The translations under genes and the position numbers were made by a program. This document shows, in pieces, positions 36,959-37,939 of a stretch of DNA of 64,000 bases. The stretch lies in the NCBI RefSeq assembly GCF_056712565.1, contig NZ_CM160072.1. The stretch is one strand, 5' to 3'. How positions within the stretch are numbered: position 1 is the stretch's first letter; each line of letters begins with the position of its first letter. Under the pieces are notes generated by a model that saw only the letters and a program-made list of their open reading frames with translations, was not told where the DNA came from and did not search any database.

Positions 36959-37939
36959 TTACTTACTGATAAGACGGTCAAGGGCGACAGCCGCGATAAT
37001 TAATCCGCCCATCACCACCAGTTGGTAATAGGTTTGTACCTGCAAAATATTCAGACCGTTGTTGATGGTGCCGATGATCAACCCGCCAATCACCACAGAG
37101 AAAATGCGCCCCTTGCCGCCGAAGAAACTGGTGCCGCCAATGATGGCGCTGGCAATGGCATAGGTTTCAAAACCCATACCGGCAAGCGGTTCTGCGGCAC
37201 CGAGTCGTGCAGTTGAGACGACGCCTGCCAGACCTGCACAAACACCGGAGATGATAAACACCACCAGGATGTGGAATTTCACGTCAATCCCGGAATAGAA
37301 CGCCGAGTTTTTGTTGCCGCCCAGTGCGTAGATGTTGCGCCCGAGCCGCATACGCGTTGTCAGAAACCAAAGGATGAGCGCGACAATTAGCGAGAAGATA
37401 ACGGGGACAGGTATCCCAATTACGCTGGCGGCAAAGAAGTTCACGAAGTCAAATGAGAAGCCGTATACCGAGTTGGCATCGGAGATCACCAGCGTGATCC
37501 CACGGAAAATAGCGTTGGTGCCAAGGGTGATAATGAACGGGTGTAGTCCCGTCCAGTTGACCAGGCAGCCGTTGATCGCCCCCAGTGCGCCGCCAACCAG
37601 TACACCGCCAATTAGCGCCGCGAGAAACGGATCAATACCTGCCAACATCAGTTTAGCGGTCACCATACCGGAAAGCGCCAGAATCGCGCCAACCTAAAGG
37701 TCGATACCGGCGACCAGGATAGCGAAGAATTCCCCCATGCCGATCAGTACCGTCACGGAGCTTTGCACAAAAATCTGGGTAATATTATTGGTGGTCAGAA
37801 AATATTCTGACGACAGCGAACCAAAAATGGCGACGATGATCGCCAGGATAAAAAAGGTGCCGTATTTATCCCAGAACAGCGCAAAGTTGAACGGTTTCTT
37901 CTCGCTCGCTTCGCTTTTTACTCGTGTGGTAAAGCCCAT
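36959..37939 (-). pseudogene. alsC: alsC allose ABC permease interrupted by one in-frame TAG (plus 37694-37696) at codon 82
   Basis: The 81-aa and 235-aa ORFs are in the same frame; translation reads ..GIDL-*-VGAILALSG-MVTAKLM..; total 81+1+9+235 = 326 codons, the length I recall for intact AlsC. Confidence 0.8.

Follow-up and report, generated by a model that had tools for sequence, protein, structure and literature searches.

The locus described here raises the question of whether a D-allose permease gene whose reading frame is interrupted by one amber codon is an inherited pseudogene, a gene that still works in spite of its stop or the product of a sequencing error, and, if the gene was lost, what caused the loss. 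The gene, alsC, lies in the window, a stretch of 64,000 nucleotides from contig NZ_CM160072.1 (RefSeq assembly GCF_056712565.1), where the following features belong to it:

36959-37939, minus strand: alsC pseudogene, D-allose ABC transporter permease, 981 bp, broken at codon 82
37694-37696, minus strand: in-frame amber TAG at codon 82, ancestrally TCG (Ser82), reading CTA on the plus strand
37697-37939, minus strand: translatable N-terminus of alsC, 81 codons, covering the first hydrophobic segment and reaching into the permease domain
36959-37666, minus strand: 3' remnant open reading frame of alsC, 235 codons, from the ATG at codon 92 to the natural stop

Translation of the minus strand across positions 36959-37939 gave 327 codons, namely 81 sense codons, the TAG, 244 sense codons and a terminal TAA, with the residues GIDL immediately before the stop and VGAILALSGMVT immediately after it. 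The listing of open reading frames contained the corresponding frames of 81 (37694-37939) and 235 codons (36959-37666). A preliminary description of this DNA had held that the frame is unbroken save for one TAG at 37694-37696, with which the translation agrees, and that its two halves amount to 326 codons, the length of the intact gene, which is likewise the length of the K-12 protein (326 aa). The identification of the gene as alsC is not due to chance, as the frame is 97.7-100% identical at the DNA level to annotated alsC in 3,373 genomes. Its position is also that of alsC, among the following genes:

37918-39450, minus strand: alsA, ATP-binding subunit, intact
36253-36948, minus strand: alsE, D-allulose-6-phosphate 3-epimerase, intact, carrying the substitution A79V
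35340-36269, minus strand: alsK, allose kinase, intact
40570-41460, minus strand: alsR/rpiR, operon repressor, intact
41819-42268, plus strand: rpiB/alsI, allose-6-phosphate / ribose-5-phosphate isomerase B, intact, divergent from alsR

With alsB, described below, these genes follow the order alsR-alsB-alsA-alsC-alsE-alsK with rpiB divergent, an arrangement collinear with the K-12 and UTI89 annotations over 13 kb. With alsR, alsA, alsE, alsK and rpiB all intact, decay of the operon is not extensive; their integrity is accounted for if little time has passed since the mutation, and some residual use of the genes would explain it equally. In 1997, Kim et al. reportedly found that growth of K-12 on allose needed alsB, alsA, alsC and alsE, and not alsK.

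The ancestral state of codon 82 was apparent from intact alleles. The orthologue in K-12 MG1655 (b4086; 981 bp, 326 aa) occupies the same place between alsA and alsE, is equal in length and shares 97.7% DNA identity with alsC of the window (23 differing positions), but has TCG (Ser) at codon 82 where the window has TAG, which leaves only 81 of the 326 residues makeable. The nearest intact allele, from the close relative FDAARGOS_1253, differs from that of the window by the stop-creating base alone (gene position 245, TCG>TAG), while two further near alleles differ at the same base and at one to three synonymous sites. The substitution is a C>A change on the coding strand, or G>T at plus-strand position 37695. 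The earlier proposal of a clean TCG to TAG nonsense mutation in an otherwise conserved gene is thus upheld by the FDAARGOS_1253 allele, one base apart, against which the remainder of the gene is intact.

Carriers of the mutation were counted among 5,426 complete E. coli genomes with a 55-mer centred on the SNP, every 28-mer megablast seed of which includes the SNP. The TAG allele was found in 124 genomes, with one chromosomal match each at 100% identity, and the TCG version of the 55-mer matched 2,998 genomes; alsC as such is present in 3,382. The preliminary description had named a sense codon on resequencing as the result that would overturn its reading, and the 124 independent complete assemblies all read TAG. 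Over all 981 bp, the allele is shared at 100% identity by UTI89 (UTI89_RS22645), APEC O1, S88, IHE3034, NU14, UM146, PMV-1, IMT5155, MS7163, MS8345, the type strain ATCC 11775 = DSM 30083 (EAS44_RS22840) and others, the loci given for UTI89 and ATCC 11775 being alsC pseudogenes of this same allele. The carriers, sampled on several continents, include isolates from human, chicken, duck, turkey, dog, swine and monkey hosts as well as from seawater. IMT5155, APEC O1 and O18:K1 strains (PMC4232414), as well as MS8345 (PMC6180223), belong to ST95 or ST-complex-95, and the alsC TAG, by assignment from named strains and this literature, marks the lineage of the ST95 complex.

RefSeq/PGAP already labels alsC as pseudo with an internal stop in every carrier inspected, including UTI89, ATCC 11775, SF-468, ExPEC XM and Z0117EC0054. 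Our search for literature on alsC or allose in UTI89, ST95 or ExPEC, or on alsC as a pseudogene, returned nothing on the TAG mutation. The pseudogene itself is hence part of the public annotation, and only the number of carriers and the order of the two nested lesions, presented below, are mildly new. The preliminary description had mentioned neither that the stop is an ST95-complex marker flagged by RefSeq nor that a frameshift in alsB lies in the same window.

The truncation takes away essential parts of AlsC. An allele differing only at codon 82 scored 651.7 bits against the NCBIfam AlsC equivalog NF007252 over positions 1-326, so that the repaired, full-length sequence stands above the curated cut-off of 396. 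The fragments encoded in the window align to positions 1-81 and 92-326 of the same model, with 141 bits for the 81-residue fragment against that cut-off, and, having no uninterrupted frame, the gene is a pseudogene of the family and not a working member. Pfam BPD_transp_2 (PF02653) covers residues 52-318 of intact AlsC (E = 6.8e-55); the stop at codon 82 leaves about 30 of 269 permease-domain positions, removing about 89% of the domain, and the stub (81 of 326 residues) keeps one clear hydrophobic segment. AlsB, AlsA and AlsC together constitute an allose importer that also takes up ribose with low affinity (PMC5893763, PMC5934670, PMC3032704). Because AlsC stops before most of its permease domain, AlsA and AlsB would be left without a membrane channel, and the high-affinity D-allose (low-affinity D-ribose) importer is predicted from sequence to be dead. 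Strains with the TAG would be expected to have lost D-allose uptake and growth on this sugar, and the stop may also be polar on alsE and alsK.

A second lesion of the same transporter was found in the window:

39577-40511, minus strand: alsB pseudogene, periplasmic D-allose-binding protein, 935 bp versus 936, with a frameshift after about codon 45 (following the residues VDMKK)
40379-40380, minus strand: site of the 1-bp deletion in alsB, AAAAAAGGC becoming AAAAAAGC, GG>G following an A6 run

RefSeq calls alsB frameshifted in 10 genomes inspected. When the 5,426 genomes were queried with a 53-mer of which every seed spans the junction, the deletion was detected in 17, and the alsC stop was also present in 17 of 17 (for 7 of these, as taken from the annotations 'alsB frameshifted' and 'alsC internal stop'). 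Carriers of the alsB deletion thus form a strict subset (17) of the 124 carriers of the alsC stop, which places the break in alsC before that in alsB. UTI89 and ATCC 11775 keep an intact alsB, whereas the strain of the window belongs to the subclade with the additional frameshift; over 13 kb, window and UTI89 differ by two SNPs and two 1-bp gaps, one of them in alsB and the other in a T-run between rpiB and alsR. The AlsE substitution A79V (GCG>GTG, plus-strand position 36713), which shifts the protein accession from WP_001314355.1 to WP_001350809.1, occurs only within this subclade, in most members and not all, FDAARGOS_1298 and ExPEC XM retaining Ala at position 79. This T-run (position 41537) was considered as a regulatory lesion and rejected, because the window shares T7 with K-12 and the subclade, T8 being confined to UTI89; the T8 of the UTI89 record is a peculiarity of that strain or a sequencing artefact and not a lesion of the window. 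In another member of the subclade, APEC E16002 (NZ_CP126944.1), the annotation gives a frameshift in phnP and a variant protein accession for alsA, WP_001622507.1, both being additional changes specific to that strain close to the als locus.

The strain of the window is very closely related, and not identical, to Z0117EC0054 (NZ_CP098206.1; dog, South Korea): a 25-kb query of the window was identical between the two, and the full 64 kb differed at two bases only, 57450 and 61889. The annotation of Z0117EC0054 for this stretch of 64 kb has about 60 genes, with alsB and alsC as the sole pseudogenes.

We are highly confident that alsC is a true inherited pseudogene, broken by a nonsense mutation in the ST95 ancestor, with an inactive AlsBAC importer and a later loss of alsB in a subclade. 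In the sequence of events that we propose, one C>A transversion converted Ser82 (TCG) into the amber TAG in an ancestor from which the E. coli ST95 clonal complex descends, and it has been retained by every descendant sampled, translation ending after 81 residues, with nearly the whole membrane-spanning permease domain still to come. Once the transporter no longer worked, its partners would probably have come under relaxed selection, and this relaxation would have led a later subclade to lose alsB by the 1-bp frameshift.

The cause of the initial loss has to be weighed against the fate of the operon in other lineages. The als operon is a dispensable accessory pathway in E. coli, and alsC is missing from 2,044 of the 5,426 complete genomes (~38%), with remnants only in some. 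In AQ15 (NZ_CP043487.1, 4466485-4466637), a 153-bp alsC remnant adjoins phnO, the trace of an operon deletion in another lineage. EAEC 042, E. coli W and PCN033 are without the operon (PMC2808357, PMC3032704, PMC4578781), and strains without it do not use allose (PMC2808357, PMC3032704), as confirmed for EAEC 042 by Biolog data (PMC2808357). The same pathway has thus been lost in these natural isolates, but by gene absence, whereas the operon of the window is physically whole and disabled by point lesions, an earlier stage of decay than the deletion of the whole operon. Such repeated loss, of which the ~38% and deletion remnants such as that of AQ15 are the evidence, would be compatible with positive selection for the loss of allose or low-affinity ribose import in the ST95 ancestor, and so would the fixation of the allele across a globally successful extraintestinal pathogenic lineage and the second lesion in the same transporter. 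However, an unused accessory pathway would equally show repeated loss, one event in one clonal lineage cannot part selection from hitch-hiking, and we found no literature tying als to virulence or fitness in ST95-complex strains. Selection in place of neutral hitch-hiking is accordingly an improbable cause in our estimate, and it concerns the cause only. Still further from likely is a broader proposition, that inactivation of AlsBAC was an adaptive step in the rise of ST95, in which case the intact alsA, alsE, alsK, alsR and rpiB, or else the stub of 81 AlsC residues, would still be useful; if adaptive, the inactivation might, for example, keep out a rare sugar that is toxic or mis-signals, or adjust ribose/allose regulation via AlsR/RpiB.

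Residual function of alsC, whether by an amber suppressor tRNA, by leaky termination or as two polypeptides (residues 1-81 and a restart at Met92), is very doubtful. Both halves of the gene retain perfect AlsC-like sequence, the partner genes alsA, alsE, alsK and alsR are intact, and an ATG lies 10 codons past the stop, yet this ATG, at codon 92, has no Shine-Dalgarno-like sequence in the 20 nt 5' of it (CGATTCTGGCGCTTTCCGGT), and a product started there would lack residues 82-91 (10 residues), from the conserved segment containing GIDLSVG. Restart at Met92 was rejected on these grounds. Programmed recoding or readthrough was rejected as well, given that the stop is not kept in orthologues, being restricted to the 124 closely related genomes, and that TCG stands in all other alleles examined, including those of the 2,998 genomes counted above. 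The later loss of alsB in a subclade would also be unexpected for a transporter in use. Elsewhere in the window, fdhF (formate dehydrogenase H, approximately 25688-27835, minus strand) is annotated as selenocysteine-containing and is therefore expected to hold an in-frame TGA that is truly recoded, unlike the TAG of alsC.

As for suppression, a serU (supD-type) suppressor would restore the serine at codon 82. Five canonical single-step amber alleles derived from K-12 tRNAs (supE glnV, supF tyrT, supD serU, supP leuX and Su7 trpT) were queried as 51-mers, arranged to keep exact matches with the wild-type K-12 tRNA loci to no more than 25 nt. The query matched 160 genomes, and the 60 listed were all supE K-12 laboratory derivatives (C600, DH5alpha, DH1 and J53 among them), which served as a positive control; no ST95-type strain was among these 60 of the 160 matches. 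No tRNA genes were detected within the 64-kb window, and both glnX and glnV of UTI89 (anticodon CTG) and serU of ATCC 11775 are wild type. Judging from these loci, amber suppression of the alsC TAG is very unlikely. In a separate query, the supD-type serU segment (anticodon CGA>CTA) was matched at 100% in one genome only, that of E. coli DSM 498 (NZ_CP193717.1, 2931865-2931921), at an unannotated locus, and this strain may be a laboratory K-12 line carrying a serine-inserting amber suppressor.

A sequencing or assembly error hiding a sense codon at position 82 is scarcely credible, for even though single-base differences are the commonest type of error, the TAG recurs in assemblies produced over about 20 years with varied technologies and in varied laboratories, including three separate assemblies of UTI89 and two type-strain accessions, and it arose by substitution at a site with no homopolymer run.

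The loss of alsC by an inherited nonsense mutation is a case of ordinary gene decay and carries little weight beyond bookkeeping. Strains of the ST95 complex, such as UTI89, APEC O1, S88 and the E. coli type strain, are predicted to be unable to import D-allose through AlsBAC, which bears on metabolic models and on phenotype-based typing, and the alsC TAG could be used as a simple marker of the lineage, with the alsB frameshift nested in it as a marker of the sub-lineage. The als locus offers a small example of the stepwise decay of an accessory sugar operon, in which one subunit of the transporter was hit and later a partner subunit.
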